Assembly (NCBI GenBank): GCA_964630755.1
Contig: CAZVYS010000003.1
Coordinates: forward strand, 1 to 63,136
DNA length: 63,136 bases
Source of the DNA: an uncultured Pseudomonadales bacterium
GTDB lineage: Bacteria > Patescibacteriota > Microgenomatia > UBA1400 > CG1-02-47-37
Direction of reading: 5' to 3'
Part shown: one piece after another, positions 7,011-54,087 of the stretch
How the letters are laid out: the number at the start of each line of letters is the position of its first letter
Position numbering within the stretch: the first letter of the stretch is position 1
The notes under the pieces: generated by a model
Told to the model about the DNA's origin: nothing
Database searches by the model: none
Seen by the model: only the letters and a program-made list of their open reading frames with translations
Position numbers and translations under genes: made by a program

Positions 7011-7698
7011 AGCCTGTCTCTAGTTTACACTTTTTTCGCCAGTCTTTTACTGGCTTTACTCCAAACTCTTTCAATAAATTCTCAAGATACTCAAGCGGAA
7101 AACCCAATACATTAGTAAAAGAGCCTTTAATTTCTTTTACCAAACTCCCATATCCCGGTAACTGATACCTAATACTATACCCTCCCCCCTTGTCTAACAC
7201 TTCAAACTTTTTTAAATAATCTTCAATAATCTTTTCCTTATAAGCCTTCATCTTCACCTTAGTTTCACACACGCTTAATCTTCCCTCTTCAGATTTAGAA
7301 TCAACCAAAGCTACTCCACACCAAACCGAGTGAGTCTTGCCACCTAAACTCATCAACATCTTCTTGGCTTCTTTTTTATCTCTAGGCTTTCCTATCTGTC
7401 TTCCCTCAAGCTCCACAATCAAATCCGATCCAATAATTAAACTTCTCTCTTCACTTTCCCCTCGGCTTTTACCAATGGTCGAATGGTGAATACCATTCGT
7501 CGAGGATTTTTTGCTAAGTTCACCCGGCGAATGCCGGGGATTGCTAGCCTTTAACATACTAAGTTCCGCCACCAAGTCCTCACCACTATCTGCCTTTATT
7601 TTCGCCTCGTCAACCTTATGCCCAACTACCTTAAAAGGTAAGCCCATCCACTTAAGTAGCTCCTTTCTTCTTGGTGACTCTGAAGCTAAATAGAGCAT
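7000..7698 (-). CDS. maf: Maf-like nucleoside triphosphate pyrophosphatase, carrying an internal repeat-derived insertion
   Basis: MLYLASESPRRKELL N-terminus and IIGSDLIVELEGRQIGKPRDKKEAKKML core. An extra segment SNPRHSPGELSKKSSTNGIHHSTIGKS is encoded by repeat copy A. Confidence 0.85.
   Translation of the reverse strand: MLYLASESPRRKELLKWMGLPFKVVGHKVDEAKIKADSGEDLVAELSMLKASNPRHSPGELSKKSSTNGIHHSTIGKSRGESEERSLIIGSDLIVELEGRQIGKPRDKKEAKKMLMSLGGKTHSVWCGVALVDSKSEEGRLSVCETKVKMKAYKEKIIEDYLKKFEVLDKGGGYSIRYQLPGYGSLVKEIKGSFTNVLGFPLEYLENLLKEFGVKPVKDWRKKCKLETGYER
7471..7539 (+). repeat. GAAT-loop double-hairpin repeat, copy A (inside maf)
   Basis: accaatggt-CGAATGGT gaat ACCATTCG-spacer-CCCGGC gaat GCCGGG. 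Confidence 0.85.
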
Positions 7699-9911
7699 TT
7701 GGAAAACCCGCAAGCCCTACAAGTCATGCATCCTTCACCCATCTCCATCTCTTCACCACACTCAGGGCAAGTATTCTTCAGCGGTTTAACTTTCACCTTG
7801 CTTTGAATAACTTGTTTTGATTTATTTTTCTTTTTAGTTGTTTCTAAAACCTGCCCTTCCCTTGACCCAGATCGATAAATCGTCACCCCCTTACACTTAC
7901 TTTCCCAAGCTAACATATAAGTTTTTTCCACCTCCACCATTGACGCATCATTAGCAAAATTAATCGTTTTACTCACTGCATTCTCAGTGTGCCTTTGAAT
8001 AGCCGCCTGCATCTTAATATGCCCTTCTGGACTAACATCAAAAGCGGTTTTAAAAACTTTTTTAATTGAACTAGGCAAATACTCAATTTCTTGACAACTA
8101 CCTGATTTAGCCACCCGTAAAAATACCTCACTTTTCTGCTCTTCGCTTATTTTTAAACCCTCTATTGCCTTTTTAAAATACGGATTAACATAACTAAGCC
8201 CACCCTCTTCAACCACGTTTTTTACATATGATAAAGCAAAATTTGGTTCAATCCCACTTGAACAATCTGCCACCATACTAATGGTGCCGGTTGGAGCTAT
8301 TGTCGTTACTGCTAAATTTCTTCTAGTCTCGCCAGACTTCTCAAATAAACTCCCTTTTATATTCTTAAAAACTCCTTTTTCCTTGCCCAATCTCTCTGAT
8401 TCATTTATAGCTACCTTGTTCACAAACTTCATAGTTTTTTTAGCAACTTTAAGTCCTTCATCTGTGTCATACCCCACTCCCAATTGATACAGCATATCAG
8501 CCAAGCCCATTACCCCTAAACCAATCCTTCTATTAGCCTTAGCCATTTTCTTAATCTCTTTGATTGGATACAAACTCACATCTACTCCATTGTCCAAGAA
8601 CCTCACCGCTACACGAGTAACTACTTCCAATCTTTTCCAGTTTACGGTTCCCACCGAATCTTTACGCGCAAAGCGAACCATTCGAGCCAAATTTATTGAT
8701 CCTAAATTACAAACATCAAATGGGTGAAGTGGCTGTTCTCCGCAAGGATTAGTAGCCTCAAGCCTGCCCAAAGTCTCAATTACTGGGTTATTTTTATTAA
8801 TCGTATCCAAAAACACCATTCCCGGATCCCCTGTTCTCCAAGCCAAACTAACTATTTGATTAAATAAATTCCTAGCCTTTATCGTTTGAACCACTTCTCT
8901 CGTTCTAGGATTCCTGAGTTTAAAATTCTTGTTTCCTTTCACTGCTCTCATAAACTCATCTGTTACTCCCACCGAAATATTAAAATTGGCTATCTCCCCT
9001 TCTTCAGTCTTGCAAGTAATAAACTCCAAAATATCCGGATGATCAATATTTAATATCCCCATGTTTGCTCCCATTCTATAGCCCCCTTGCATCACCTGAG
9101 CTGTAGCTGCATCAAACACCTTCATAAAACTAACCGGTCCGGTGGCAAATCCTCCACTAGACTTAACATAGTCTCCTTTTGGCCGAAGCTTTGAAAAATT
9201 AAAGCCCGTTCCTCCTCCGGCCTGCTGAACCAAAGCCAGCCACTTTACCGCGTTAAAAATCTCCTCCATGCCGTCCTCAACCGGCAACACAAAGCAATTA
9301 GCCAATGTCGGTCTATTTGTTCCTGCTGATCTTAAATATCCTCCTGCTGGCACAAATTCTAATTTAGAAATCACCTCATAAAACTTTTCTTCCCATTTTG
9401 CTTGATTCTTTTTCCCCTTCTCTTTTAAAGCTATGTACTTTGACACTCTTCTAAATAGATCATTTGGCGTCTCTGTTGCTTTGCCATACTCGTCGTGTCT
9501 TAAATATCGATTCTCAAGCACCTTCAGTTGATTAATCGACAAGCCTAAATCATCTTCTACCCCCAAAGCTTGCTTGGCCTCTCTCACCTTCTGATGCTTT
9601 TCTCGGTAAATTATATACGCCTTGGCTGGATTAAAATGACCAGCAGCCATCAATACTTGCTCTACTACGTCTTGAACCTGCTCAACACTCGGAAACTCAC
9701 CATTCACGCCTTTCTTTAAAATATTAACCACTATCTTAGTTAATCTTTCAGCTTCCTTTTTCCTTCTACTCTCCTCTACTATCTCTCCTGTGGCTTCAAA
9801 AGCCTTCACAATCGCCCCAATCACCTTAGCTTCCTCAAAAGCCACTACTTGGCCATTTCGTTTTCTTATTTTACTTAAATCTGTCATAAATAACTTATCA
9901 ATTACGCCCAA
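7686..9911 (-). CDS. nrdJ: class II (adenosylcobalamin-dependent) ribonucleotide reductase with N-terminal ATP-cone
   Basis: 741 aa with an ATP-cone-like N-terminus (RKRNGQVVAFEEAKV), NCFVLPV, thiyl-radical motif [17 protein letters not shown], and a C-terminal CxxC...CxxC zinc ribbon. Confidence 0.92.
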   Translation of the reverse strand: MGVIDKLFMTDLSKIRKRNGQVVAFEEAKVIGAIVKAFEATGEIVEESRRKKEAERLTKIVVNILKKGVNGEFPSVEQVQDVVEQVLMAAGHFNPAKAYIIYREKHQKVREAKQALGVEDDLGLSINQLKVLENRYLRHDEYGKATETPNDLFRRVSKYIALKEKGKKNQAKWEEKFYEVISKLEFVPAGGYLRSAGTNRPTLANCFVLPVEDGMEEIFNAVKWLALVQQAGGGTGFNFSKLRPKGDYVKSSGGFATGPVSFMKVFDAATAQVMQGGYRMGANMGILNIDHPDILEFITCKTEEGEIANFNISVGVTDEFMRAVKGNKNFKLRNPRTREVVQTIKARNLFNQIVSLAWRTGDPGMVFLDTINKNNPVIETLGRLEATNPCGEQPLHPFDVCNLGSINLARMVRFARKDSVGTVNWKRLEVVTRVAVRFLDNGVDVSLYPIKEIKKMAKANRRIGLGVMGLADMLYQLGVGYDTDEGLKVAKKTMKFVNKVAINESERLGKEKGVFKNIKGSLFEKSGETRRNLAVTTIAPTGTISMVADCSSGIEPNFALSYVKNVVEEGGLSYVNPYFKKAIEGLKISEEQKSEVFLRVAKSGSCQEIEYLPSSIKKVFKTAFDVSPEGHIKMQAAIQRHTENAVSKTINFANDASMVEVEKTYMLAWESKCKGVTIYRSGSREGQVLETTKKKNKSKQVIQSKVKVKPLKNTCPECGEEMEMGEGCMTCRACGFSKCSI

Positions 9912-9935
9912 TGCAGACAGAAGTGCAGCGTTTTG

Positions 9936-11852
9936 TCATACACTACACTTGCTCCACCCGCATTCCATGCAAATAGCGCAACCCTCCTTTATTTCTAAAC
10001 TGCCCCCGCAATCCATACACATATCCTTATTTACTCTCAACACTTGATCTTCTTTAGATCCATCTCTGTAAATCGTTATCCCTTTACAACCTTGTTTCCA
10101 GGCTTGCAGATAAGCTTTTTTCACCTCATCAACACTCGCTTTCTTAGCAAAATTAATTGTTTTACTCACACTATTATCAAAGTTCTTCTGCCAAGCAGCT
10201 TGAATCTTTACATGATATTCCCAATCCACTTCATGAGTGGTAACAAATACTCGCCTAAATTTTACTGATATTTCTTTAATTTTCCCCATAGATCCCGTAC
10301 TAGCCAACTGACCCAATATTTCCTGTCTTCTTTTTTTATCCTTAACCTGACTCCTTAAAAACTCTTCAAACACTGGGTCAACTATTACCAACTCTCTGGT
10401 CGGCCGATTATCTTTATCATCCTCAAAAAATGTTCTTCTCAAAGTCACCAACGAAAACACCGGCTCTATTCCACTACTGCAATCTGCAAACAAACTAATT
10501 GTTCCTGTTGGCGCTATCATCGTGGTTGCACAATTCCTTCGTCTCTTTCCTCCAGCATAAATACTCACATCATAATTTGGAAAACTACCTCTTTCTTCTC
10601 CTAATTTCTCGGTTTCTCTATCAGCTTCTTTTCTAATAAAATGACTCAATTTCTCGGCTAACTTAACCGCTGCCTGACTGTTATATGCTATTTCTAGTTT
10701 ATAAAGCAAATGGGCAAACCCCATCACTCCTAGCCCAATTCTTCTATTACCCTCCTTAACCATCTTTTCATTTTTCTCCAAAGGATAACTATTCGCCTCA
10801 ATCATATTATCCAAAAACCTTACCCCCAAAGAAATTGACTTCTTAAGTTCCTTATAGTCCACTTCATACCGACCATTGGCCAATTTCTTTACATGATTAG
10901 AAAGCACTATGCTAGTCAAGTTGCAGTTCTCATACGGCAACATGGCTATTTCCCCGCAGGGATTAGTTGTCTCAATCCTTCCTAAGCTTGGCGTTGGGTT
11001 ATCCTTATCCATTGCATCAATAAAAGCCATCCCCGGATCTCCGCTTAAATGGGCTTGCTTGCAAATCTTAAAAAACAACTTATCCGCCCTTATTTTCTTC
11101 ACTACCTCATTAGTTCTAGGATTAACTAAAGCCCACATCTTTTTAGCCTCTACCGCCTTCATAAACTTATCAGTCACCCCCACCGACACATTAAAGTTTT
11201 TTAAATTTCCATCTTCAGCCTTCATCTCAATAAACTCTTCAATATCAGGATGTGTAACATTCAAAATCGCAATATTAGCTCCCTGTCTTTTTGCTCCTTG
11301 TAAAATTTTAGATAAAGCAGCACTAAACGCTTTAATAAAATCAACCGGGCCCGAAGCCGCTCCAATCACATTCTTAACCTTATCCCCATGAGGCCTAATC
11401 TTGGAAAAATTAAAACCAGTTCCTCCATTGTTTTTATGAACCACCGCAGCCTCACCTAATGTTTTAAAAATCGACTGAATACTATCTTCAATCGGCAACA
11501 CAAAACACGCCGCCATCTGTCCTGTTCCCCCTGGATTTCCAGCTTCAAACATAGCCTTTCCACTACAAACAAACTTTTTACTCACCATTCGCTCATAGAA
11601 CAACTCCGCAGTCTCTCTAACTTTACTATCTATAGCCGCAAGGGATGAATACCCCTTGCCCTTTAAACTCTTTGCAAACTTTACCCGGCGAATGCCGGGC
11701 CACAACACTTCAGGTTTAGCCATGTGTTGAGCCACTCGCCACAACATCTCCCCCACGCTCTCTACTAACCGACCCTTTTGATTAGCCATCAAGTATCTCT
11801 TTTGAGTTATCTCTAAGGCAGTTTTGGATTGCTTTGGTTCTATTATCTTCAT
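9936..11852 (-). CDS. nrdJ: class II ribonucleotide reductase paralogue (no ATP-cone), with internal repeat insertion
   Basis: 638 aa with ACFVLPI, TNPCGEIAM, CNLTSIVL and C-terminal CMDCGG...CAICMECG. Repeat copy B encodes the segment WPGIRRVKFAKSLKGKGYSS. Confidence 0.92.
   Translation of the reverse strand: MKIIEPKQSKTALEITQKRYLMANQKGRLVESVGEMLWRVAQHMAKPEVLWPGIRRVKFAKSLKGKGYSSLAAIDSKVRETAELFYERMVSKKFVCSGKAMFEAGNPGGTGQMAACFVLPIEDSIQSIFKTLGEAAVVHKNNGGTGFNFSKIRPHGDKVKNVIGAASGPVDFIKAFSAALSKILQGAKRQGANIAILNVTHPDIEEFIEMKAEDGNLKNFNVSVGVTDKFMKAVEAKKMWALVNPRTNEVVKKIRADKLFFKICKQAHLSGDPGMAFIDAMDKDNPTPSLGRIETTNPCGEIAMLPYENCNLTSIVLSNHVKKLANGRYEVDYKELKKSISLGVRFLDNMIEANSYPLEKNEKMVKEGNRRIGLGVMGFAHLLYKLEIAYNSQAAVKLAEKLSHFIRKEADRETEKLGEERGSFPNYDVSIYAGGKRRRNCATTMIAPTGTISLFADCSSGIEPVFSLVTLRRTFFEDDKDNRPTRELVIVDPVFEEFLRSQVKDKKRRQEILGQLASTGSMGKIKEISVKFRRVFVTTHEVDWEYHVKIQAAWQKNFDNSVSKTINFAKKASVDEVKKAYLQAWKQGCKGITIYRDGSKEDQVLRVNKDMCMDCGGSLEIKEGCAICMECGWSKCSV
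11627..11700 (+). repeat. GAAT-loop double-hairpin repeat, copy B (inside nrdJ paralogue)
   Basis: tatctatagccg-CAAGGGat gaat acCCCTTG-ccctttaaactctttgcaaacttta-CCCGGC gaat GCCGGG. Confidence 0.85.
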
Positions 11853-13750
11853 GACACACTACACCTTGAATAGCCACACGACAAACAAGTCGCACAGCCT
11901 TCTTTAAAACTTAATTCTCCCCCACACTCTGGACATAGCTCTTCTTGACTATGACCATTCCCAACCCATTTTCTTTGATTATCAACAATCGGATCACTCC
12001 CACTTTGACCTACTCCTGCATTCAAGACCTGCCTCGCCTTACTACCATCCCGATAAACCGTAATCCCTTTACACCCTGTTTGATAAGCCAACTCATAAGC
12101 TTCCTTAACATCGTCAGGCGACGCTGATCTAGACATATTAATCGTTTTTGAAACCGCTGCATCAATGTGCTTTTGCCAAGCTGCCTGCATCTTAATATGT
12201 GTTCTAAAATCTATCTCATGACTCACTTTAAACAACTCCTTAACATCTTTTGGCACGTTTACTATCTCGCTCACTCCTCCAGTCTCACTTACCTCCTTCA
12301 TTAACTCTTTTGAATAAAACTTTCTCTCTTTGGCCACTTTCAAAAACAAATCATTTGCTTCAAGCAACTCAGTATTATCCACATCCAAAATATTCTTTCT
12401 TATATACGACAAGGCAAACAAAGGCTCAATTCCACTACTACAATTGGCAATAATACTAATAGTTCCAGTTGGCGCCACTGTATTAACAGTACTATTCCGC
12501 ATCCCTTTAAAGCCTTGCTTCTCCCAATCACTACCTTTAAAGCCAGGAAACGAGCCTCTTTCTTTAGCTAGCTTTTGTGACTCACTAATAGCCGTGTCAT
12601 GAATAAACTTACTAATTCTCTCCCCCATTCTCAAACCTTGATTTGAATCATAAGCTATCTTTAGCTTTACCAGCATATCTGCAAACCCCATTACTCCTAA
12701 ACCAATCTTTCTAGTCTTTTTAGTCTGTTTATCTATCTCTGGCAATGGATACTTACAAATATCTATCACATTATCCAAAAACCGCACAGCTACTTGAACC
12801 AAATTCTCTATTTTCCTCCAGTTCACCTCCATCACCATTCCTCTACCTCTTTTTTTTCTCTTAACACACTTAGATAAATTAATGCTACCTAAATTACAAC
12901 TTTCATAAGGGAGTAACGGCTGCTCTCCGCAAGGATTAGTCGTTTCTATTCTTCCTAAATGCTTAATCGGACTAGCTTCATTCATCTTGTCAATAAAAAC
13001 CATCCCCGGATCTGCTGTCTTCCAAGCTTGAAAAGTAATCATATCAAGCACTCTAGAAGCCGAAATCTTTTTAACTACTTTAGTTCCAGTTTGCTCCGAC
13101 TCTCCATTGGGAATTCTCAACTCATACTCTTTCCCATTTAAAGCCGCCTTCATAAACTCATCTGTCACTCCCACTGAAATATTAAAATTTCTTACCTCTT
13201 CTTCAACCCCTTTTGCAAAAACAAAATCCATAATATCAGGGTGATGAACATCCATCACCGCCATTAAGGCTACTCTCCGACTAGAACCCTCGTTAATCAC
13301 TTCAGCTGCTTCGTTATAAAGCTTTAAAAAAGAAATTGGGCCAGAGGTAATTCCACCAGTTGATCGAATTCTTGATCCTCTAGGTCGCAAGTTAGACAAA
13401 GGAATGCCTACCCCACCGCCAGTCCTAGCAATCGTGGCCATCTCTTCCATCGAATTAAAAATACTCTCCAACGAATCAACTAAGGGCAGCACAAAACACG
13501 CCGATAATTGATTAAACTTAGTTCCTGCATGCATTAAAGTTGGCGAGTTTGGTAAAAACTCCAACTTACTCATCACCTTGTAAAACTTTTTCTCCCACTT
13601 GCTTCTATTCTCTTTCTTTTCAATCTTTGATATCGCTTTAGCCACCCTCCTAAACATCTGATCAGGCTTTTCAACCACTCTTCCTTCTTTATCTTTTTTT
13701 AGATAATCTCGCTTGGTCAAAACTGTTAAGGCATTATCTGACAACTTCAT
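11849..13750 (-). CDS. nrdJ: class II ribonucleotide reductase paralogue (no ATP-cone)
   Basis: 633 aa with [24 protein letters not shown] and C-terminal CPECGG...CATCLSCG. It overlaps both neighbouring genes by 4 nt. Confidence 0.92.
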
Positions 13751-14193
13751 TTAATCTCCTTAACTAACTTGGTAAAATCTTTAATTTTATCAAAATCCAA
13801 ATAAACACTGGCAAACCGAACATAAGCCACCTTATCAAGCTTCTTTAGCCGTTTTAAAATCGCATTCCCAACTAACTTACTACTAACTTCACCATTCTTT
13901 TTCCTCATCATCTCTTGCTCAACCTGATCTACTATTTTCTCTATTTTATTAATACTCACCGGCCTCTTCTCACAAGCCCTCACCACTCCTTTTCTCAATT
14001 TTTCTCGGTCAAAGCTCTCTCTCTTATCATCCTTTTTTACTACTTGAAGCTGAGGCCCCTCTATTCTTTCATAAGTCGTAAATCTTTTGGTGCATTTATT
14101 ACACTCCCTTCTTCTCCTGGTAACTGTCTCGTCCTCGCTATCACGAGACTCTAATACTGATGATTCGTTATTATCGCAAAATGGACATTTCAT
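13747..14193 (-). CDS. nrdR: transcriptional repressor NrdR
   Basis: MKCPFCDNNESSVLESR...CNKCTKRFTTYERIE zinc ribbon followed by an ATP-cone. Confidence 0.95.
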   Translation of the reverse strand: MKCPFCDNNESSVLESRDSEDETVTRRRRECNKCTKRFTTYERIEGPQLQVVKKDDKRESFDREKLRKGVVRACEKRPVSINKIEKIVDQVEQEMMRKKNGEVSSKLVGNAILKRLKKLDKVAYVRFASVYLDFDKIKDFTKLVKEIK

Positions 14194-14285
14194 AGCTTTT
14201 GCTCAAGGTCCGTTCTTGAAGCTTTAGCTTTAAGGCTGGACCTTTTTTAGAACTCAAGCGATAAAATCACCCGAGAAAATTATAG

Positions 14286-14332
14286 ACACTATCGGCAGTG
14301 TCCAACAAAACTTTATCCACCATCCGTAGTGT
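14286..14332 (-). promoter_or_regulatory. tandem NrdR boxes upstream of the nrdR-nrdJ operon
   Basis: ACACTATCGGCAGTGT (14286-14301) and CCACCATCCGTAGTGT (14317-14332). They match the 16-bp palindrome acaCwAtATaTwGtgt at 12/16 and 11/16 positions, and start 31 bp apart. Confidence 0.55.
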
Positions 14333-14394
14333 AGTCAACTACCAACTTGTAGCACAAACTATATCAACAACTTTTCTACCCCTGTTATTGCCCT

Positions 14395-16470
14395 TTAATT
14401 TATCATCGTTTCCGAAAACCGATCAAAATACCTCACCTTCTTATTCGACTCACCAACCTCCATCGCTGGAATTTTGTTCTTTAATACTACTGGTTGTATT
14501 ACAAATGTATCCGCAATCTCAGAAAGGATTGCCACAGCAGCAAAAGACCAGTCCCGAAACAAGCTAAAAAACTGATCACTTCCTTCCTCAATTGTTACCC
14601 CCATCGCCCACTCAGCCCCTCCAACCCATTCTTCCAATCCATCCAAAGCCGGTACAGCCATCGACCATCCCAACTCTTCATATTCAGGAATACTTACCTC
14701 ACTTTCCGGCAACCACTCAAAATCATCCATTTTTGGAATCTCAACCTCACTTACTTCAACCTCTTGCTCACCAACTCCAACACTAGGTCTACTATCTTCT
14801 TCAGTCGCTAATAAAACTCCCCTGTCGCCTTGCTCCTCATCACCCACAACCCAACTCCCACTCAACCCACTATAACTAACGTCTTGACTACTACTTTCAA
14901 CTATCTGTTCCTCGTGGCTGTCTCTCTCTGATAAGTTTTTGTTAACAGTTTCAGTCTCTTCAGTTATGCTTGACTCCATCTCCAAAACCGACTTCTCTCC
15001 TACCCATCCATCTTTTTGCCCTACCGCTACTTGTTCTGTTTCTTTTTGAAAAACCACCTCTCTTCCACTAGGACTTGGACCATCAACTGGCTCTTCAGGC
15101 TCTGGGTCATCAAAATCCTCTTCCTCGGCCACATCCAGCTCTTCATCAACTTCTAATGCTTTAGTCTCCAATGCTTTAGTCACTTGCTCAACTCTACTAA
15201 TCTCTTGAAACAAATCTATTTCTCGACTATCAACCGCCTCATCCACCTGCTTATCAGCTATTCCCTCAAAACTCGCCTGACTTGCTTCTACTGGCCAGTC
15301 AAAAACATCAACTGCTTCAGATAATTCAGGTGTTTCAGATATTCCAGGCAATGCAAATCTAGTTTGAGCCTCTAATGCCATTACGCTTAAAGCATTAATT
15401 CCACCAAACACAAACTCCCCACCATCTAATCTTTGTGTCTCAATCATAAAACCAGAAAACATCTCTGCTCTAAATTCCACTGGCATCATCATTGTTAACA
15501 TCGTCATCTCGCCCAAAAACTCTAATCTCATTTCTTCTAACAAGCCATCTATTAAACTATCAATTTCTTCTAATCCACCTTCTACTGCTCCTTGATAAAT
15601 CTCCCCATTCTCTCCCTTAATTTTCACATCACCTATTTCATTAGATTTTCCCTCCCATTCTCCCAATGTTCCCCCACTCAATCCTCCACCATCACTTCCA
15701 TGACTACTCCTAGTCACAATATGCTCACCCACTTTCAAACCATCTAATTCTGCTTGTTCAATCAAAAACTCGTCAATCCCATCCTTTCCACACAAAAATC
15801 CCGCCCACATAATTTTCTCTCCCATCTCGTCTATTAGCCATTCTTCTCCATCAATCATCTGATATCTAATCCTTTTACCTAAATCCCGGTTATTGCCCTC
15901 TAGCTCATCAACCACCCTTCTATCCCATTCTTCATCGATTTCTCTCATTCCCAACAACTGCCAAGCCTCTACAAACACATCCGGCATCCCATTTCCTACA
16001 TACTCATAAATCATCGGCTCTTTACTCCACTCCTCCACTTCTTCTGAGTATTCTTCAGGTAGTAAAACTCTCTTAATGTTTAAACTTCCTCCTTCATTAA
16101 AAACAATCTCTAAAGCCTTACTTAATCCAGTTAAATTCGCCAACTCATCATCTAGATCCAAAAATCTTATCATCGTCATTCCTGATTCTCTTAGTTCAGA
16201 AAAATCTTCCCAGTCAGCCCCCTCTAGATCCATCACCCAACTCTTGCTCTGCCACTCTTCATCAACTAAATCTAATCTGGTGCTCGTTATCGGTGAATTT
16301 ATTAAATCATCTCTGCTTACTTTTCCTATCTTGTCGATTATTAAGTCCTGCTTATCTGGCTTAATCTCGATTCTCTCCCCTTTTGCCGCAAACATCACCT
16401 GAGGCAAACTATAAAGTTCTTCCACCCCCACCTGGACTTCTATATTAATATTTTTTGCTTCTACTGGCAT
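14395..16470 (-). CDS. highly acidic orphan protein, apparently cobalamin-riboswitch controlled
   Basis: 2.1-kb uninterrupted ORF, very Asp/Glu rich, with no signal peptide or TM visible. ATG at 16470 preferred because the 9 extra codons from the TTG at 16497 are the terminator hairpin of the leader. Confidence 0.7.
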   Translation of the reverse strand: MPVEAKNINIEVQVGVEELYSLPQVMFAAKGERIEIKPDKQDLIIDKIGKVSRDDLINSPITSTRLDLVDEEWQSKSWVMDLEGADWEDFSELRESGMTMIRFLDLDDELANLTGLSKALEIVFNEGGSLNIKRVLLPEEYSEEVEEWSKEPMIYEYVGNGMPDVFVEAWQLLGMREIDEEWDRRVVDELEGNNRDLGKRIRYQMIDGEEWLIDEMGEKIMWAGFLCGKDGIDEFLIEQAELDGLKVGEHIVTRSSHGSDGGGLSGGTLGEWEGKSNEIGDVKIKGENGEIYQGAVEGGLEEIDSLIDGLLEEMRLEFLGEMTMLTMMMPVEFRAEMFSGFMIETQRLDGGEFVFGGINALSVMALEAQTRFALPGISETPELSEAVDVFDWPVEASQASFEGIADKQVDEAVDSREIDLFQEISRVEQVTKALETKALEVDEELDVAEEEDFDDPEPEEPVDGPSPSGREVVFQKETEQVAVGQKDGWVGEKSVLEMESSITEETETVNKNLSERDSHEEQIVESSSQDVSYSGLSGSWVVGDEEQGDRGVLLATEEDSRPSVGVGEQEVEVSEVEIPKMDDFEWLPESEVSIPEYEELGWSMAVPALDGLEEWVGGAEWAMGVTIEEGSDQFFSLFRDWSFAAVAILSEIADTFVIQPVVLKNKIPAMEVGESNKKVRYFDRFSETMIN

Positions 16471-16494
16471 AAAAAAACCTTCCTCGCAGGAAGG
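16471..16494 (-). terminator. intrinsic terminator / RBS-sequestering hairpin of the riboswitch expression platform
   Basis: Minus strand reads CCTTCC-tgcga-GGAAGG followed by TTTTTTT and then ATG. The GGAAGG arm doubles as the only SD-like sequence. Confidence 0.6.
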
Positions 16495-16665
16495 CAATAC
16501 CCTTTATCTCCTCCTGCTCGGGAGAGTCCGACGATATATCAGACTTATCATTTAAAGCTCAGTCTTCTGGCTTGTCCGAAGTTACATCAGACTTACAGTT
16601 GCGGCACAGCTTCGGCATTCCTGCTTCGACCTTAGGCGGGTCACCGAATTCCCTGAATCTTTAAT
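16471..16665 (-). promoter_or_regulatory. cobalamin (B12) riboswitch
   Basis: Minus strand: AGGGAATTCGGTGA...CCGAAGCTGTGCCGCAACTGTAAG...ACAAGCCAGAAGACTGAGC. This matches the conserved AGGGAA, GGTGA, GCxGxxCCGCAACTGTAA and B12-box AGCCAGgAGAC elements. Confidence 0.75.
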
Positions 16666-16676
16666 TTAATTGTCAA

Positions 16677-17294
16677 TTATAATTCTGTTTTACTTATCAC
16701 TAATATTTGCTCTAAAACTTGCCTTTGCTCTTCTCCTACTTTTTCATTAATAATCATTATCACTTCCTGATGTTTCCTTGCAGCCTTAGAAAGCTTTTCT
16801 CTAAATTCTGTTTTTGACTCATCAAGTTCAGAAGATAACATCATTGCTTGCTCTAAATATTTTTCCGCCTTTGTTAAGGTTGTTACTCCCAAACTTACCT
16901 TTCCACCTTCAACTAAAGCCCAACCTGCCCCCAAACGCTTATCAGCATATAAAAGCAGTTTTTCTGCCTTTGATTCTGTTTTAGTTGTTAACCACAACTG
17001 CACTTTATCTCTAACCATCTTTAACCAATACATCGGATGGTCTGGTAAAATCCCTGGATACGGTAAATAATAATCAACTGACTCTTGAGAAACTTCCATT
17101 AATGGAGCCTTAGTAATCACCATGCTATTACTTTCAGTTTCTTCTTCTATCACTACCTCTTCCTCCACTTCATGTACTTCATGTTCATGAGCTACTGCTA
17201 GGCTTGTTGCTGACACCCTTAACACTCCTACTCCAAACAGCAACCCCAACACTACTATATATACAGGCATCTTTATCTCATCATGCTTTCTCAT
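16677..17294 (-). CDS. membrane-anchored or secreted hypothetical protein (DUF5667-like)
   Basis: 205 aa with an N-terminal hydrophobic segment and the motif YYLPYPGILPDHPMYWLKMVRDKV followed by helical repeats. Confidence 0.55.
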   Translation of the reverse strand: MRKHDEIKMPVYIVVLGLLFGVGVLRVSATSLAVAHEHEVHEVEEEVVIEEETESNSMVITKAPLMEVSQESVDYYLPYPGILPDHPMYWLKMVRDKVQLWLTTKTESKAEKLLLYADKRLGAGWALVEGGKVSLGVTTLTKAEKYLEQAMMLSSELDESKTEFREKLSKAARKHQEVIMIINEKVGEEQRQVLEQILVISKTEL

Positions 17295-17911: not shown

Positions 17912-17950
17912 AGTTAACCGCTATTGTGCCATATTTGCTACAATACGTCT

Positions 17951-20278
17951 ATGCCTGAATCCAAGCAAAGTCTTAAAACTTCTATCAATAACTTGAAGGC
18001 AACAACAAAGCTAAAAATCTTTAAACTAACAAAAATTCTTAAGACTTCTATCCATAGCTTAAGGGTGAATACCCTTAAAACAATTAAAAACCTTGCAAAC
18101 TTTAGGGGACGAATATCCCCTCGTCAATTTGCTTTTATCATTATTCTTCTAGTTGGTTTAATCATCTTCATGTTCACCATTTTAAAAGACCTCCCTTCTC
18201 CATCCAGGCTTTCATCTGATGAATTTCCCGTCTCTACTAAAATTCTTGATCGTAATGGTCAAATTCTTTACGAAATTTATGCTGATCAAAACAGAACTCC
18301 AATTAAAATCAAAGATCTGCCAGACTATGTATTAAAAGCCACCATTTCTATTGAAGACAAAAACTTTTACAAACATCATGGCTTTGATCTGCAAGGAATC
18401 TCTCGGGCTTTTTTAAATACTCTATTTAAACAAAATCTCCAAGGCGGCTCCACCATCACCCAACAACTAGTCAAAACCACTCTTTTATCACCGGAAAGAA
18501 CCATCAAGAGAAAGCTCAGAGAAGCTATTTTGGCCTTAGCTACCGAGCTTCGTTACTCTAAAGACGAAATTATTCAGATGTATCTTAACCACGTTCCTTA
18601 TGGTGGCACTGCCTATGGCATCGAGCAAGCCAGCTTAACCTATTTTAATAAATCAGCTAAGGACTTAAAACTAGAAGAAGCCGCTCTTTTAGCTGGCCTT
18701 CCCCAGGCGCCTACCCGGTACTCCCCTTTTGGTTCTAATCCCGACGCTGCTAAAAATCGTCAAGCCAATGTTTTAAAACGCATGTTCGAAGATGACTACA
18801 TTGACTCTGATCAACTCCAATCCGCCTTAGACACCAAACTTGAATACGCTCCTCAATCTCAAAACATCCTCGCTCCCCACTTCTCTCTTTTTATCAAAGA
18901 TCTTTTAGTTGAAAAATATTCTCAGCCCGTCGTAGAAAAAGGTGGTTTAATCGTCACTACCTCTCTTGATCTAGACATTCAAAAGCAAGCCGAAATCATT
19001 ATCGCCACCGAAAGCGCCAAACTAGAATCAGCTAACGTCAGTAACGCAGCCGCCCTAGTTACCAAACCAAGAACTGGAGAAATCCTCGCCATGGTTGGCT
19101 CCCGTGACTACTTTAACGCTGAAATCGATGGTAATGTTAATATTACTACTCGACTTCGTCAACCCGGTTCTTCTATCAAGCCCATCAACTACGCTGTTGG
19201 TTTAATCAAAGGCCATACTCCAGCCACTATGTTTCTTGACGTTCCCTCTTGCTTTAATGCTCCAGGTCAACCCTCTTCATATTGCCCCAAAAACTACGAC
19301 AATACCTTTCACGGCCCAACCCATATGCGTTTTGCTCTTGGCAACTCCTACAACATCCCCGCCGTCAAAATGCTTGCCAGTAATTCAGTTGAGGCCATGG
19401 TCGCCACTGCCTCAGCCATGGGAATTACATCTTATCAAGATCCAAAAAACTATGGCCTATCCCTTACCCTTGGTGGTGGTGAAGTTCGCATGATCGACAT
19501 GGCAGTTGCTTTTGGAGTTTTCAGCAATCAAGGCTTAAAAGTCGACCTTACTCCTATTCTTAGCGTTAAAGACTATCATGGCAACGTCTTAGAAAGCATT
19601 AATCTTGAAACCGAAATACCAGCCGGCGAAAAAGCCATTTCCCCAGAAGTAGCCTACCTTATCTCCCACATGTTGCTCGATAACAATGCCCGAGTCGGCG
19701 CTTTTGGTTCAAGCTCTGAGCTAGTCATCCGTGACCACACTGTTTCCGCTAAAACCGGCACCACCGATGACCTTCGAGATAACTGGACGATTGGCTTTAC
19801 CCCTTCGTACTTAGTCTCAACTTGGGTCGGCAACAACGACAACACCCCCATGCACCCCTACTTAGTCTCTGGTGTTTCTGGCGCCGCTCCCATCTGGCAC
19901 GACATCATGGAATATGTTCTTAAAGATGAACCTGACGAATGGCCCAAAAAACCAGACACTATTATTGGCCTTCAAGTCTGTAACCTAACTGGCCTTAGAC
20001 CCAATCCCGAATCCCCTTGCGAAACTAGATACGAATACTTTATCAAAGGCCAAGAACCAAACATGGAACCAATTCTTAAACGTGACATCTGGATCGACAA
20101 ATCCACCAAACGCCCACCCGTTCAAGGCAAAACCGACGACCTTGAGTTACAAGAACATATTGTTGTCTCAGACCCCGTCCAAAAAGACTATTGTGTTGAT
20201 TGTGAAAAAGAAATTGATGAGGAAGGTAAAATCAAAGAAGCTCCTTACACCATTAACATCTACCCGCCGGAAGAATAA
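17951..20278 (+). CDS. class A penicillin-binding protein (transglycosylase/transpeptidase), PBP1A-like
   Basis: GT51 motifs EDKNFYKHHG and GGSTITQQLVK, plus transpeptidase motifs SSIK, SYN and KTGTT. TGcTACAAT-N6-ATG precedes 17951. Confidence 0.9.
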   Translation: MPESKQSLKTSINNLKATTKLKIFKLTKILKTSIHSLRVNTLKTIKNLANFRGRISPRQFAFIIILLVGLIIFMFTILKDLPSPSRLSSDEFPVSTKILDRNGQILYEIYADQNRTPIKIKDLPDYVLKATISIEDKNFYKHHGFDLQGISRAFLNTLFKQNLQGGSTITQQLVKTTLLSPERTIKRKLREAILALATELRYSKDEIIQMYLNHVPYGGTAYGIEQASLTYFNKSAKDLKLEEAALLAGLPQAPTRYSPFGSNPDAAKNRQANVLKRMFEDDYIDSDQLQSALDTKLEYAPQSQNILAPHFSLFIKDLLVEKYSQPVVEKGGLIVTTSLDLDIQKQAEIIIATESAKLESANVSNAAALVTKPRTGEILAMVGSRDYFNAEIDGNVNITTRLRQPGSSIKPINYAVGLIKGHTPATMFLDVPSCFNAPGQPSSYCPKNYDNTFHGPTHMRFALGNSYNIPAVKMLASNSVEAMVATASAMGITSYQDPKNYGLSLTLGGGEVRMIDMAVAFGVFSNQGLKVDLTPILSVKDYHGNVLESINLETEIPAGEKAISPEVAYLISHMLLDNNARVGAFGSSSELVIRDHTVSAKTGTTDDLRDNWTIGFTPSYLVSTWVGNNDNTPMHPYLVSGVSGAAPIWHDIMEYVLKDEPDEWPKKPDTIIGLQVCNLTGLRPNPESPCETRYEYFIKGQEPNMEPILKRDIWIDKSTKRPPVQGKTDDLELQEHIVVSDPVQKDYCVDCEKEIDEEGKIKEAPYTINIYPPEE
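18049..18122 (+). repeat. GAAT-loop double-hairpin repeat, copy C (PBP N-terminal tail)
   Basis: tatccatagc-TTAAGGGT gaat ACCCTTAA-aacaattaaaaaccttgcaaacttt-AGGGGA cgaata TCCCCT. Confidence 0.85.
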
Positions 20279-20283
20279 AACTC

Positions 20284-20356
20284 TAATAATTTCTGAATGG
20301 CGAATGCCATTCAAACTTCTGAAACCTTTGCAAGCTTTAGGGAGCGAATGCTCCCC
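20284..20356 (+). repeat. GAAT-loop double-hairpin repeat, copy D (intergenic)
   Basis: TGAATGGC gaat GCCATTCA-aacttctgaaacctttgcaagcttta-GGGAGC gaat GCTCCC. Confidence 0.9.
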
Positions 20357-20376
20357 CTTTTTCTATTCTTATAGGG

Positions 20377-22942: not shown

Positions 22943-23016
22943 CTATTAATTTCTTGAGGGTGAATACTCTCAAATCAACTAAATCCTTTGCAGTCTTTAG
23001 GGGGCGGATGCCCCCC
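22942..23016 (+). repeat. GAAT-loop double-hairpin repeat, copy H
   Basis: actattaatttc-TTGAGGGT gaat ACTCTCAA-atcaactaaatcctttgcagtcttta-GGGGGC ggat GCCCCC. Confidence 0.85.
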
Positions 23017-23992
23017 ACCACTCCCAGACAACTCGACTAATTTTTGGCAACACCTCCTGCGCCTCACCATCGTTAACCCCTGAACTCATCATGCAGATTA
23101 CATAAGGCTCATCTGCATAAACTATCCCACAATCATTCACAATCCCTGATTCTGATCCAAACTTGTGAACTACTTTTACTCCACTTGGCACCCCCGCTGT
23201 AATCCGATCTTCATTAACTGTCATAGTTAAGCTTTCAAATAACTTTTCCTTGCTTTTTTTACTAATAAACTCATTATTATATAAATCTTTAAACATCTCT
23301 CCTGCCTCTTTAGTTGTCATTTCTTCTGGTAATTTTTCATTAACCCACTTACTCATTAACTGCGCAGCCATATTATCACTTTGATTAGCCATCAGCTCTG
23401 CTATTTCTTGATAAGTATACTCCGTACCTATTGGTTGATTTTGCATGCTTCCAGTTCCATACTCCCATCGGTCAACTTCTTTTAAAACATATAGCTCCTC
23501 CGAATTAATCTTCCCGCTATCAACTTGCCTATAATACTCCACCAAAACTGGCATCTTAGAAACTGATGCTGCAGAAATTGTTTTATTAGCATTAATCACA
23601 AACCCTTCTTCTGTTACTAAATTCTCCACCCATACTCCATAATCACCACTCAAATCTTTTAACAATTCTTCCACTGCCTCTTCCACGTCTTGTTTTTCTT
23701 TAATCGTTACCTTAAAACCAATCACCTCAGACACATCTTTAGCATCTCCAACTGGCTTTAAAATAGTAATTGTTTCAGGATTATTCCAGTCTTTCCACCA
23801 ATCCCTAACTTCTCTTGGTAAATAAAACATTAGCCCCAAAACTAAGGTAATTAACAATCCTACTCCTGTCTGTTTTCTTGATCCTTCTTCCCCGATCGTT
23901 TTTCTTCTCCTTTTTCTTCTCCGCTTTATTCCCTCTTCCCCCTCCACAAAATCCTTCTCCTGTAACTTCTCTTTATTTTCTTTATTCATCAC
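22997..23992 (-). CDS. class A beta-lactamase-like serine hydrolase, membrane anchored
   Basis: 331 aa with a basic N-terminus plus TM helix and SxxK motif ASVSK in a beta-lactamase-like fold region. The last residues (WWGASAP) are encoded by repeat copy H. Confidence 0.7.
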   Translation of the reverse strand: MMNKENKEKLQEKDFVEGEEGIKRRRKRRRKTIGEEGSRKQTGVGLLITLVLGLMFYLPREVRDWWKDWNNPETITILKPVGDAKDVSEVIGFKVTIKEKQDVEEAVEELLKDLSGDYGVWVENLVTEEGFVINANKTISAASVSKMPVLVEYYRQVDSGKINSEELYVLKEVDRWEYGTGSMQNQPIGTEYTYQEIAELMANQSDNMAAQLMSKWVNEKLPEEMTTKEAGEMFKDLYNNEFISKKSKEKLFESLTMTVNEDRITAGVPSGVKVVHKFGSESGIVNDCGIVYADEPYVICMMSSGVNDGEAQEVLPKISRVVWEWWGASAP

Positions 23993-24005
23993 CTAAATTT
24001 TAACA

Positions 24006-24072
24006 CATTAATCTAGGGGGCGAATGCCCCCTACACCTTTAAAATTACTTATTTACCCGGCGAATGCCGGGC
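24006..24072 (+). repeat. GAAT-loop double-hairpin repeat, copy I
   Basis: cattaatc-TAGGGGGC gaat GCCCCCTA-cacctttaaaattacttattta-CCCGGC gaat GCCGGG. Confidence 0.85.
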
Positions 24073-24339
24073 TAACAACTTATCAATTGTCTGCTTGTAT
24101 CTTAACTTCATCTTTTTTCTCCCATCACTACTCTTCAAATATTTTTCTCTAGCTCCAGCCTCTTTTTTATACCAATAAAACTCATATCCAACTAACTTCA
24201 ATGGCCTCCTACTTCTCGTTGATATCACTTTCCCTTCAATGTGATTTTTAAACCTCATCTTCACATCTTCAGTTATTCCCACATAAAACTGCTTATCTCT
24301 TAACGAGATTAACACATACACAAAATACATTCTATTCAT
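24049..24339 (-). CDS. small GIY-YIG nuclease family protein (UPF0213/SLX1-like URI domain)
   Basis: MYFVYVLISLRDKQFYVGITEDVKMRFKNHIEGK is a classic GIY-(X)-YVG...R..H motif. 96 aa. Confidence 0.85.
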   Translation of the reverse strand: MNRMYFVYVLISLRDKQFYVGITEDVKMRFKNHIEGKVISTRSRRPLKLVGYEFYWYKKEAGAREKYLKSSDGRKKMKLRYKQTIDKLLARHSPGK

Positions 24340-25941: not shown

Positions 25942-25970
25942 AATCCCATTATATAAAGTCTTAAGCCTTC

Positions 25971-26040
25971 TACCAATAGCCGAATGATGAATATCATTCG
26001 CCTAAATCACTTAACTAAGTTTACCCTGCGAATGCAGGGC
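25971..26040 (+). repeat. GAAT-loop double-hairpin repeat, copy K
   Basis: taccaatagc-CGAATGAT gaat ATCATTCG-cctaaatcacttaactaagttta-CCCTGC gaat GCAGGG. Confidence 0.9.
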
Positions 26041-49948: not shown

Positions 49949-49958
49949 CCTCTTATTC

Positions 49959-50032
49959 TATCAATTGCTTTGAGGGGTGAATACCCCTCAATCAATAAAT
50001 TCTTTGCAAGATTTACCCGGCGAATGACGGGA
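49959..50032 (+). repeat. GAAT-loop double-hairpin repeat, copy L
   Basis: tatcaattgc-TTTGAGGGGT gaat ACCCCTCAA-tcaataaattctttgcaagattta-CCCGGC gaat GACGGG (one stem mismatch). Confidence 0.85.
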
Positions 50033-50075
50033 CACAGCGAACTAGGCGGCTAGCCACGCCTAGACTCGCTTGTGT

Positions 50076-52790: not shown

Positions 52791-52831
52791 CTTATAGAAA
52801 AATCTTCTTTATTCTGATAACATACTCATCC

Positions 52832-53344
52832 ATGTCAGTCTTAACTCAATCAGCCCTCTTAAAAGAAATCAAAGCTAAACGTATTAAAATTAATCCATTT
52901 AACCCTAATCAGGTCGGTCCAGGCTCCATCGATTTTCATCTAGACAAAGCTTTTAGGATTTTTAAACAAGCCAAAGAACTCTTTCATGTCAAAGACAAAA
53001 TTGACTATCAATCTGTTTCTGAAACTATTGATGTTGACGACTACCTTACTCTTCTTCCTGGCCAATCTGCTCACGGCATTACTATCGAATCGCTCTCTTT
53101 ACCAAATAACATCTGTGGCTGGATTCAAGGCCGTAGTACCTTGGCTCGTGTTGGCTTAATGGTCCATATTACCGCTAACTTTATTCATCCCGGAACCACT
53201 GGTAAGCAAGTATTAGAAATGACTAACTCCGGCCCCATGCCCCTAGCTATACATCCTGGGATTTCTATCTGTCAAATCATTCTCGAAGACACCCGAGGCA
53301 AAGCTCAATATAAAGGCACTTTTCACAACCAACAAAGTCCCTGA
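52832..53344 (+). CDS. dcd: dCTP deaminase
   Basis: QVGPGSIDFHL, GWIQGRSTLARVGL and GQVLEMTN motifs. Start at MSVLTQ. Confidence 0.85.
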   Translation: MSVLTQSALLKEIKAKRIKINPFNPNQVGPGSIDFHLDKAFRIFKQAKELFHVKDKIDYQSVSETIDVDDYLTLLPGQSAHGITIESLSLPNNICGWIQGRSTLARVGLMVHITANFIHPGTTGKQVLEMTNSGPMPLAIHPGISICQIILEDTRGKAQYKGTFHNQQSP

Positions 53345-53353
53345 AAATTCCTA

Positions 53354-53390
53354 AGGTTACGTAACTTCAGTAATGTTCGTAACCTTTTCA
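53354..53390 (+). terminator. hairpin plus T-run after dcd (GGTTACG family)
   Basis: AAGGTTACG-n15-CGTAACCTT followed by TTTC. It overlaps the 3' end of the convergent rmlC-like ORF. Confidence 0.45.
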
Positions 53391-53986
53391 AAACTCCCCG
53401 GAAACTTCTCCCTTAGCGCTACTGCTTGCCTATCTCTGTCTGAAATAATCATCTCTTTTTTATCCAAAGGCCACTCTATTTTTAAATCCTTGTCAAACAC
53501 ACTAATGGCGACATCACCGGCTGGATCTCTATCTTTATAAAGACGATCTACTAAATAAACATAATCAACTTTCTTGCTTATTGCACAAATCGAATTAGCC
53601 ACTCCTGGCATAATAAACAAACCCCCCTCTAAACACTCTGACTCAAAACCCAAACGAAAACTAACCACTTTTTTAAATGTTTTAGACTCAGGCCTTACAT
53701 CAGCCAATGCACAAAAGCTAACTCCACTTGTCACCATCACAAACTTCTTCCAATCTTCAGCATGCAAACCACGCACTACTTTTCTCTCAGATCGAGAATG
53801 ATTTACCTGCTTAACCACAAATGGTTCTTTAACTAACTCTTCTAGCTTGTGTATATGAGCTACTTCTGAAAAAAATCCTCGATTGTCTGAAAACTGTCGT
53901 CTTTCTATATACCACAATCCTTTAATTGGAGTCTTAAACACCCCTTCTACCACTTCAAGTTTTTTATCTGGTTGATACAATTTCAT
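53357..53986 (-). CDS. rfbC: dTDP-4-dehydrorhamnose 3,5-epimerase-like cupin
   Basis: DNRGFFSEV and VVRGLHAE motifs. Start moved to MKLYQP because the 21 upstream codons are repeat copy M. Confidence 0.75.
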   Translation of the reverse strand: MKLYQPDKKLEVVEGVFKTPIKGLWYIERRQFSDNRGFFSEVAHIHKLEELVKEPFVVKQVNHSRSERKVVRGLHAEDWKKFVMVTSGVSFCALADVRPESKTFKKVVSFRLGFESECLEGGLFIMPGVANSICAISKKVDYVYLVDRLYKDRDPAGDVAISVFDKDLKIEWPLDKKEMIISDRDRQAVALREKFPGSFEKVTNITEVT

Positions 53987-54018
53987 AATCTGTATATTAT
54001 ACAAAGTCTTTAATCCCA

Positions 54019-54087
54019 CACCAATAGCTGAATGATGAATATCATTCATCGAGTTTTTTAACCGAGTTTATCCCGCGAATGCGGGAC
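54019..54087 (+). repeat. GAAT-loop double-hairpin repeat, copy M
   Basis: caccaatagc-TGAATGAT gaat ATCATTCA-tcgagttttttaaccgagtttat-CCCGC gaat GCGGG. Confidence 0.9.

Follow-up and report, generated by a model that had tools for sequence, protein, structure and literature searches.

We describe here a family of repeats of about 75 bp, each made of two hairpins with GAAT loops, that is dispersed in 13 copies, all in one orientation, over a stretch of 63,136 nucleotides (nt) of contig CAZVYS010000003.1 (the window, by which the whole 63-kb stretch is meant throughout), together with a small gene for a GIY-YIG nuclease that these repeats bracket. On balance, we believe that the repeats are hairpin elements of the single-stranded DNA (ssDNA) type that belong with this nuclease of ~95 amino acids (aa), and that a strand-specific action like that of the nuclease Ssn (Chenal et al. 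2025, Nat Commun, PMC11893778) has locked their orientation. The nuclease gene (Table 1) is the relevant gene overlooked by an earlier note on this DNA, which had reported that no transposase was present in the window.

The 12 full copies were used to build a covariance model (R1), which has 75 positions and 14 base pairs. Run with the filters off on both strands of the window, it recovered all 12 full copies with E values of 2e-12 to 7e-19 and matched the solo half-copy at E = 0.0014, all on the plus strand; the best score on the minus strand of the window (10.8 bits, E = 2.1) was noise, and no reverse copy was found there. The 13 sites listed in the earlier note were all present, with starts that differed from ours by 0-10 nt. 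Its two-hairpin architecture is borne out by R1 and by the covariation presented below, and its single orientation by the scan, in which 13/13 window copies lay on the plus strand. Its description of the GAAT loops as invariant held for ~23 of 25 loops, the exceptions being GACT and GGAT in hairpin 2 of copies 20741 and 22943, respectively (copies are named by their first position in Table 1). On the G-rich strand, the unit reads hairpin 2 (GCCCGGC-ATTC-GCCGGG-TAAA), spacer, hairpin 1 and a terminal box (ATTGATAG). The copies were clustered, 8 of the 13 falling between 18 and 26 kb of the window. An assembly artefact was ruled out, as the same copies were found in independent JGI, ENA and NCBI assemblies, and the idea of a peptide module was discarded because neither the frame nor the strand in which they are read is the same for all copies.

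Table 1. Positions of the repeat copies, the nuclease gene and the related sequence features in the window and in related loci (L numbers).
Feature	Sequence	Position	Strand	Context	Score
Full copy	window	7469-7541	+	in-frame in Maf gene (7000-7713, -); encodes NPRHSPGELSKKSSTNGIHHSTIGK	74.6 bits
Full copy	window	11626-11702	+	in-frame in class II ribonucleotide reductase paralogue (9936-11852, -)	82.4 bits
Probable decayed extra copy	window	17982-18047	+	directly before copy 18048	11.3 bits
Full copy	window	18048-18123	+	within N-terminal tail ORF of PBP1A-1 (17924-20278, +)	
Full copy	window	20283-20358	+	intergenic, between two PBP1A genes	81.3 bits
Full copy	window	20526-20612	+	11-nt spacer insertion; 5' region or N-terminal tail of PBP1A-2	69.9 bits
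Full copy	window	20741-20815	+	5' region or N-terminal tail of PBP1A-2	74.6 bits
Full copy	window	22323-22397	+	in-frame in PBP1A-2 transpeptidase domain (SINSLGVNTPKTTKSLQNLPGECRAS)	90.8 bits
Full copy	window	22943-23018	+	directly after PBP1A-2 stop; overlaps 3' end of beta-lactamase-like ORF	77.6 bits
Full copy	window	24000-24074	+	hairpin 2 on minus strand forms last codons (ARHSPGK) of GIY-YIG gene, then stop	
GIY-YIG nuclease gene	window	24049-24339	-	96 aa, single domain	PF01541, E = 4.7e-14
Solo copy	window	24332-24360	+	terminal box CTATTCAT fused directly to hairpin 2	
Full copy	window	25970-26042	+	between GAPDH and epimerase genes; hairpin 2 end overlaps GAPDH ORF start	
Full copy	window	49958-50034	+	intergenic	85 bits
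Full copy	window	54018-54089	+	overlaps start of dTDP-sugar epimerase (RmlC-like) ORF; family D3	
5' extension	window	25948-25969		copy 25970	
5' extension	window	53996-54017		copy 54018	
5' extension elsewhere	L036, L058, L017, L018, L041, L064, L076				
Second palindromic family	L079	8100-8117			
Second palindromic family	L080	7889-7906			
Second palindromic family	L058	5465-5482			
Second palindromic family	L009	3937-3954			
Second palindromic family	L025	6446-6463			

The plus strand of the window contained 18 perfect hairpins with a GAAT loop on a stem of 5 bp or more, compared with one such hairpin with an ATTC loop and at most three with every other tetraloop, a pattern that is far above chance. 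Compensatory changes were found at 13 of the 14 stem pairs of the 12 window copies. When 48 distinct copies from several genomes were considered, 99% of the stem cells were paired and the covariation score was 0.762 versus 0.255 in shuffles (0/500 shuffles as high); in shifted-register controls, pairing fell to 38-52%. Folding as ssDNA gave similar results for both strands (z-scores of -3.6 to -4.4), and the G-T and A-C mismatches in the stems (8 vs 4) were too few for choosing the folding strand. The stem subtypes of the hairpins varied from copy to copy. The pairing, the covariation, the folding z-scores and the identical hairpins of the orthologous PBP copies described next are evidence for a constraint on the stems at the DNA level.

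At least three copies lay in-frame inside genes, those for Maf, for a class II ribonucleotide reductase (RNR) and for the second of two PBP1A proteins (PBP1A-2), and others overlapped the ends of open reading frames (ORFs). The RNR copy 11626 formed an insert of ~23 aa (VLWPGIRRVKFAKSLKGKGYSSLAAIDS) with respect to two paralogues in the window, and the PBP1A-2 copy 22323 one of ~25 aa with respect to the window paralogue. In Maf, where copy 7469 was in an open frame, the Pfam match took 211 residues for a model of 187 positions. A further copy was in-frame inside the Pth gene of L017. Two loci, L079 and L080, shared synteny and 70-76% DNA identity with the window. In the orthologue of copy 22323 in L080 and L010, the box and hairpins 1 and 2 were identical to those of the window, and the flanking coding sequence was 74% identical; the chance of 55 identical positions can be estimated as ~0.74^55, or roughly 6e-8. 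At the relative position of copy 20741, L080 and L010 also carried a copy, of another stem subtype, and the sites of the sister species otherwise varied in copy presence or stem subtype. The L079 orthologue had no detected copy where the window has copy 18048, and the same was true of L080 in the stretch corresponding to copy 20283, a stretch that was ~214 bp shorter. At 70-76% identity, the filled-versus-empty alignments with L079 and L080 are too diverged for defining the ends of the element or a target duplication. Contigs L085-L089, which come from the same population as the window and were 99.9% identical to it, had every copy and no polymorphism in the copies, and an apparent difference at the GIY-YIG gene of L086 was a run of N.

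Two other observations were made in these loci. In the same-population contigs L086 and L087 (4692-5679), a 5-nt deletion at window positions 23395-23399 breaks up the beta-lactamase-like gene (22997-23992), leaving two ORFs, and this represents a within-population frameshift polymorphism. In addition, related genomes carry a second palindromic family (GGTTxCGAACTT-TAAG-AAGTTCGAGTTCGxAACC; Table 1), none of which was found in the window. In L079 and L080, this family occupies sites that bear GAAT elements in the window, namely the Maf insert and the PfkB/beta-lactamase junction.

The single orientation coincided with a marked strand asymmetry. The window had 39.6% G+C, and its plus strand contained 7,474 G (11.8%) and 17,501 C (27.7%), which amounts to a GC skew of about -0.4 in all 2-kb bins that was still -0.25 where genes are on the plus strand. 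Most of the window genes were on the G-rich (minus) strand, and the proteins from the two strands differed visibly in amino-acid make-up. In the order UBA1400 (Ch65, Collierbacteria and Beckwithbacteria), one strand is known to be richer in C than in G over the full length of the closed chromosome, the skew never switching, and one-directional replication has been proposed (Kadnikov et al. 2020, PMC7143001). We found the same phenomenon in a Beckwithbacteria-like genome, with a skew in the window that is stronger than that of Ch65 (G 15.0%, C 29.8%; PMC7143001). Mobile elements were reported as absent from Ch65, and the paper makes no mention of the repeats described here (PMC7143001). The GAAT loops were on the C-rich strand in 57/57 R1 matches (E < 1e-8) from 25 loci, in which the magnitude of the local skew was never below 0.2. 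As the earlier note had claimed, orientation was independent of gene strand, since six copies are in or beside the plus-strand PBP1A genes and the rest in or beside minus-strand genes. A GAAT loop puts G on the G-poor strand, and as the loops oppose the compositional bias, they must be either constrained or recent. Of the tabulation against GC skew and replichore that the earlier note had suggested, the first part gave the complete co-orientation just mentioned, but the lineage offers no flip for comparison; with no skew switch reported in it, a replichore-flip test in the usual form is inapplicable. Indeed, the fetched loci of the repeat-bearing lineage showed no change of skew sign, contig Ga0233431_1000023 (442 kb) being represented among them by a 4.9-kb piece only.

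We characterized the nuclease gene and its surroundings. The Pfam GIY-YIG domain covers residues 4-76 of the protein, and residues Y8, Y19, G21, R29, H33 and E65 were invariant in 25 homologues; because the catalytic residues are invariant, the nuclease looks active. Hairpin 2 was found at both ends of the ORF at a distance of 0 nt, and the start codon lay within the terminal box of the solo copy 24332, which in turn encodes the last codons (ARHSPGK) of the upstream PfkB gene. The chance of either gene end being so close to a copy is roughly estimated at p < 1e-2. A Pfam search over essentially all window ORFs detected no Y1/HUH transposase and no RAYT, and a hidden Markov model (HMM) of IS200/IS605 TnpA, built on a seed of IS608, ISDra2 and two Sulfolobus TnpA sequences that was verified against PDB, gave a best E value of 0.17 over 613 kb (the window plus related loci). 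The candidates put forward in the earlier note, repetitive extragenic palindromes (REPs) with RAYT or IS200/IS605, therefore lack a Y1 domain in the window ORFs and a TnpA match in the 613 kb. The likeness to REPs also failed in another respect, as these are extragenic and commonly form inverted hairpin pairs, whereas the copies described here are often intragenic and their hairpins are paired in direct order. A check against Rfam, likewise suggested before, yielded no family for the repeats: at the gathering threshold only a tRNA and a cobalamin riboswitch were found in the window, and an E-value scan across copies 24000 and 24332 returned only traJ_5 (E = 0.75).

Related loci were recovered with the 20-nt pattern of hairpin 2 alone and not with the nuclease sequence. 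When one genome per species was searched, the exact pattern was found in the metagenome-assembled genomes (MAGs) JBDRQW01 and PCSQ01 of Beckwithbacteria and in MAG CAXBYZ01, further matches in GC-rich genomes being chance ones, and JGI metagenomes provided ~35 further real loci. Loci L001-L003 and L085-L089 belong to the same population as the window (99.9-100% identity). Two loci binned as 'uncultured Pseudomonadales', L004 (CAZDQA01) and L021 (CAYICL01), carried the hairpin 2 element, with skews of -0.29 and +0.14 and 43-45% G+C, and probably represent Microgenomates DNA assigned to the wrong bin. Hairpins were joined to six additional GIY-YIG genes, all distinct (L017/L066, L058, L031/L071, L042, L068 and L036), and in the skewed loci the gene was always on the strand with the ATTC loop. 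The 3' codons of the ORF (ARHSPGK or ARYSPGK) were those of hairpin 2 in the window, L058, L031, L042 and L068, and the database homologues P0006 and P0007 had the same hairpin-2-type C-terminal tail. In L017, full repeat copies adjoined the gene, which was 82% identical in DNA to that of the window and had different neighbour genes, and at the syntenic PfkB/beta-lactamase-like junction of L080 the gene was absent and only a decayed element was found. Distant homologues in two other organisms (L081, 6001-6491; L084, 2876-3293) were immediately upstream of tRNA-Ser(GGA), preceded by an incomplete tRNA duplicate that breaks off in the T-loop and with CCCGGC-N4-GCCGGG hairpins between; the T-arm of this tRNA (GGGTTCGAATCCC) has CGAAT in common with the loops of the repeats. 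Judged from sequence comparison, the different neighbours in L017, the absence in L080 and the tRNA-Ser sites are evidence that the GIY-YIG gene moves. In L082 (1789-3228), homologue P0017 was located between the N-terminal SAM-like and the catalytic parts of a phage-type integrase gene, which it apparently splits, and no hairpin with a stem of at least 6 bp was found there within 400 nt of the GIY-YIG gene. Finally, L031 (1772-2092) and L068 (6629-6943), apparently the same host site, had identical 3' thirds and downstream sequences and clearly different 5' two-thirds, which suggests recombination between nuclease alleles.

The mechanism that we propose can be outlined as follows. The nuclease ORF begins directly behind one such unit at several loci and mostly terminates within the following one, and the dispersed 75-bp copies would be gene-less derivatives of the unit, similar to miniature inverted-repeat transposable elements. 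By analogy with Ssn, the nuclease would recognise the hairpin only in ssDNA and on one strand, and would nick nearby. The same strand would be exposed as ssDNA along the whole chromosome, as the chromosome-wide excess of C over G leads us to suppose. A single orientation could then arise in two ways, either because copies were inserted strand-specifically into the exposed strand or because those with their cleavable strand exposed were eliminated by selection. If an Ssn-like action takes place on permanently asymmetric strands, the orientation rule is explained. We infer that the nuclease binds or cuts these hairpins, that their spread is its work and not that of host recombination, and which of the strands is active. 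The general idea of the earlier note, an element acting as strand-specific ssDNA, is in our view the best reading.

Several points weigh against this interpretation. There was one nuclease gene per 63 kb for 13 repeats, the GIY-YIG gene of L017 had no 3' element, and no filled/empty site pair was found among the close relatives examined. The motif published for SRMs, the hairpin repeats of Ssn (HGTCWYN(0-2)YYVSBRHN(0-5)WNVSBRGN(0-2)RNCYNB), was matched nowhere in the window, where shuffles gave a mean of 0.15 matches, nor in L017, L058, L042, L031 and L068. The Ssn of Neisseria has been proposed to restrict incoming DNA and not to transpose its repeats (PMC11893778). The association could also be the reverse, the repeats having been there first and the nuclease gene having homed into them. 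Moreover, the nearest solved relative of the window protein was the UPF0213 protein 1zg2 (E = 1.4e-6, 31.7 bits), and the comparison with a Smithella-type GIY-YIG protein (flanked by GTCATTCC), assumed to stand in for the Ssn clade, gave 23.7 bits and 29% identity. The Smithella type appears more distant from the window protein than UPF0213 or SLX1-like small GIY-YIG proteins do and, through this assumed stand-in, the comparison leans against membership of the window protein in cd10448 (GIY-YIG_unchar_3), the clade of N. meningitidis SsnA.

It could also be that the nuclease belongs to a second minimal GIY-YIG clade, UPF0213/SLX1-like and distinct from Ssn cd10448, and that it is the transposase-like enzyme of an unrecognised class of ssDNA hairpin elements, which would insert the two-hairpin cassette strand-specifically at the fork, often in-frame in essential genes. 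We regard this as possible but unlikely. Its ancestral target may have been the T-arm hairpin of tRNA-Ser and, if the proposal is true, the single orientation in the one-directionally replicated Microgenomates would be a natural record of the mechanism. Less likely again, in our opinion, is that the repeats came first, as selfish or structural elements similar to Rickettsia palindromic elements (RPEs) and spread by host recombination or slippage, and that they are the target of a homing-type parasite, the GIY-YIG gene, which neither makes nor moves them. The presence of the gene in different repeat-containing sites across genomes, its homing-like relatives at the tRNA-Ser T-arm and in the split integrase gene, the allele recombination suggested by L031 and L068 (identical 3' part, differing 5' part) and the repeats far outnumbering the nuclease genes would agree with such an origin. 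However, homing alone leaves unexplained both the spread of the 75-bp unit to unrelated sites and the single orientation, and the C-terminus built from hairpin 2 in divergent homologues argues for a long co-evolution. The clustering of the copies (8/13 in 18-26 kb, not evenly spaced), their presence or absence at syntenic sites of sister species, the variation of stem subtypes between copies and the tight tie to a nuclease gene found at different locations, all typical of selfish elements, make it improbable that the repeats serve a replication-strand function of the host independent of the nuclease, be it as lagging-strand priming or fork hairpins or as KOPS/Chi-like polar signals. Such a function would nevertheless fit the perfect co-orientation with a chromosome-wide skew, hairpins conserved above the surrounding essential coding sequence and a loop G kept on the G-poor strand against the bias.

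A transcriptional role was suggested by a 5' extension (ATTATATAAAGTCTTAAGCCTT before the box; Table 1) common to ~1/3 of the copies. On the G-rich strand, it creates TTGGTA (inside the box), 17 nt and TATAAT, a near-consensus promoter of the sigma-70 type, and it ends shortly upstream of gene starts, including that of the GIY-YIG gene in L036; that of copy 25970 (minus strand) was upstream of the epimerase gene. In the window, this promoter-like feature lies at 25948-25976 and 53996-54025 (minus strand). Some copies may thus act as promoters. The in-frame copies and those antisense to the PBP genes mean that a promoter role cannot explain the family. A broader proposal, that the repeats are cis-regulatory RNA or transcription cassettes combining terminator or insulator hairpins with an outward promoter for genes of the G-rich strand, would draw on the same conserved extension near gene starts and on the location of most genes on that strand. 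It is contradicted by the in-frame copies in Maf, RNR, PBP1A and the Pth of L017, where a terminator would be harmful, by the six copies at plus-strand genes, which are antisense and yet have the same absolute orientation, and by the lack of a T-run after the hairpins and of any clear enrichment in promoter-like or terminator-like sites, and we consider it very improbable. The window had 9 terminator-like sites versus 5.5 +/- 2.0 expected, and only ~3 of the 9 overlapped a copy; terminators or promoters were discarded as a general explanation, although a subset of the copies has the promoter-like extension. The least probable of the explanations considered is a non-autonomous derivative of IS200/IS605 or RAYT (a palindrome-associated transposable element, PATE, or a REP) that depends on a Y1 HUH transposase elsewhere in the genome. 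A short spacer between two similar hairpins in direct order, as at the ends of IS200/IS605, and an orientation locked to the strand as in IS608 and ISDra2 would suit it. The window ORFs had no Y1 domain, though, and the TnpA HMM, which is small, could miss very divergent RAYTs and covers 613 kb and not the whole genome, went no further than its best E of 0.17 in a sequence where GIY-YIG genes were repeatedly joined to hairpins.

The remaining genes of the window were ordinary housekeeping genes of the candidate phyla radiation (CPR). A cobalamin riboswitch (16540-16677, minus strand) precedes a very acidic ORF of 700 aa with no Pfam match (14395-16497), which is followed by NrdR and three tandem class II RNR paralogues (11849-13750, 9936-11852 and 7686-9911, minus strand). 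For this riboswitch-RNR region (7686-16677), L079 had only ~4.9 kb where the window has ~9.3 kb. A tRNA-Ile with anticodon TAT was located at 2156-2230 (minus strand); this tRNA is unusual in bacteria, most of which use a lysidine-modified CAT.

If correct, our interpretation extends the partnership between hairpins and small GIY-YIG nucleases to CPR bacteria, with a motif that is invisible to the published SRM search. An absolute orientation on strands that are apparently permanently asymmetric is the signature expected of elements made or selected as ssDNA at the fork, and the orientation rule offers a direct test of which strand the nuclease sees. The conserved in-frame insertions in RNR, PBP1A and Maf, and in Pth in a relative, represent an RPE-like phenomenon outside Rickettsia. 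These findings bear on the spread and role of short palindromic repeats (RPEs, dRS3/NTS and other SRMs) and provide new candidate sequence specificities for ssDNA nucleases as tools.

Among known systems, IS200/IS605 and REP/RAYT are hairpin elements that are processed as ssDNA and have an orientation biased with respect to replication direction; in IS200/IS605, the hairpins at the left and right ends are in direct order, insertion occurs 3' of a fixed tetra- or pentanucleotide with no duplication of the target, and the orientation of IS608 and ISDra2 is strand-locked. The repeats described here resemble the PATEs of IS200/IS605 in architecture only, with two direct hairpins per unit and 57/57 matches co-oriented with the skew, and differ from both groups in having a GIY-YIG gene and no Y1 HUH that we could find in the window ORFs or the 613 kb. 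The RPEs, which Ogata et al. are said to have described in 2000, are reportedly short palindromic selfish repeats that lie in-frame in protein genes, including essential ones, and are kept as peptide segments. By that description, the likeness is one of behaviour, with palindromic repeats in-frame in RNR (~23 aa), PBP1A (~25 aa) and Maf, and the two differ in sequence, size, architecture and host phylum; a strand-locked orientation is, to our knowledge, not known from RPEs. Rickettsia is itself among the genera rich in SRMs (PMC11893778).

The closest described system is Ssn/SRM. Ssn has ~94 aa and a single GIY-YIG domain in which Tyr, Tyr and Glu are the catalytic residues. It binds its hairpin repeat (NTS/SRM) only as ssDNA and on one strand, cuts a few nt upstream and has no activity on double-stranded DNA or RNA; its nuclease activity has been demonstrated, and its mobility is speculation only (PMC11893778). 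Ssn genes are typically arranged as repeat-gene-repeat, and the copy numbers of SRM/NTS repeats run into the hundreds in Neisseria, Wolbachia and Rickettsia, with 2% of the NTS copies being intragenic in N. meningitidis (PMC11893778). Here too, a single-domain GIY-YIG protein of similar size (96 aa) is encoded by a gene flanked by GC-rich hairpin repeats in a layout like that of an insertion sequence, the same hairpin is dispersed in many copies, and the polarity of the repeat comes from non-palindromic flanks. In contrast, the unit consists of two different hairpins plus a box (~75 nt) and not of a single hairpin of 20-50 nt, many of its copies are in-frame in genes, and its strict single orientation has no reported counterpart in SRMs. 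The protein probably represents a small GIY-YIG clade different from that of Ssn. A tblastn search of plasmids directed toward an N. meningitidis SsnA anchor gave 3 weak matches, and a homology search with the Smithella-type protein gave 7,528 relatives, with no Neisseria entry among the matches listed.

Smithella-like (Syntrophales) contigs without skew (L008, L020, L022, L045, L029/L040 and L030/L039) carried a 20-mer identical to that of hairpin 2, nested in NTS-like or GTCAC-type palindromes (e.g. GGATTCCCGCC...GGCGGGAAT). In L029/L040, a GIY-YIG gene from another, large subfamily (the one with 7,528 relatives) was located ~130 nt away from the 20-mer. In the Smithella-like contigs, the ATTC strand of the 20-mer was parallel to the canonical top strand of NTS, which by analogy gives a weak hint as to the active strand. 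The earlier note had allowed for a family already catalogued and with a known enzyme, and in this respect the kind is known, as Ssn/SRM (PMC11893778), but the motif fails the SRM consensus. On account of this failure, and of a protein whose nearest solved relatives are UPF0213 proteins, we file the repeats and their nuclease as Ssn/SRM-like, since they would resemble that system in the way they work, and claim no membership for them. What is new here is the two-hairpin motif, probably the small GIY-YIG clade, the RPE-like in-frame insertions and the absolute orientation rule.

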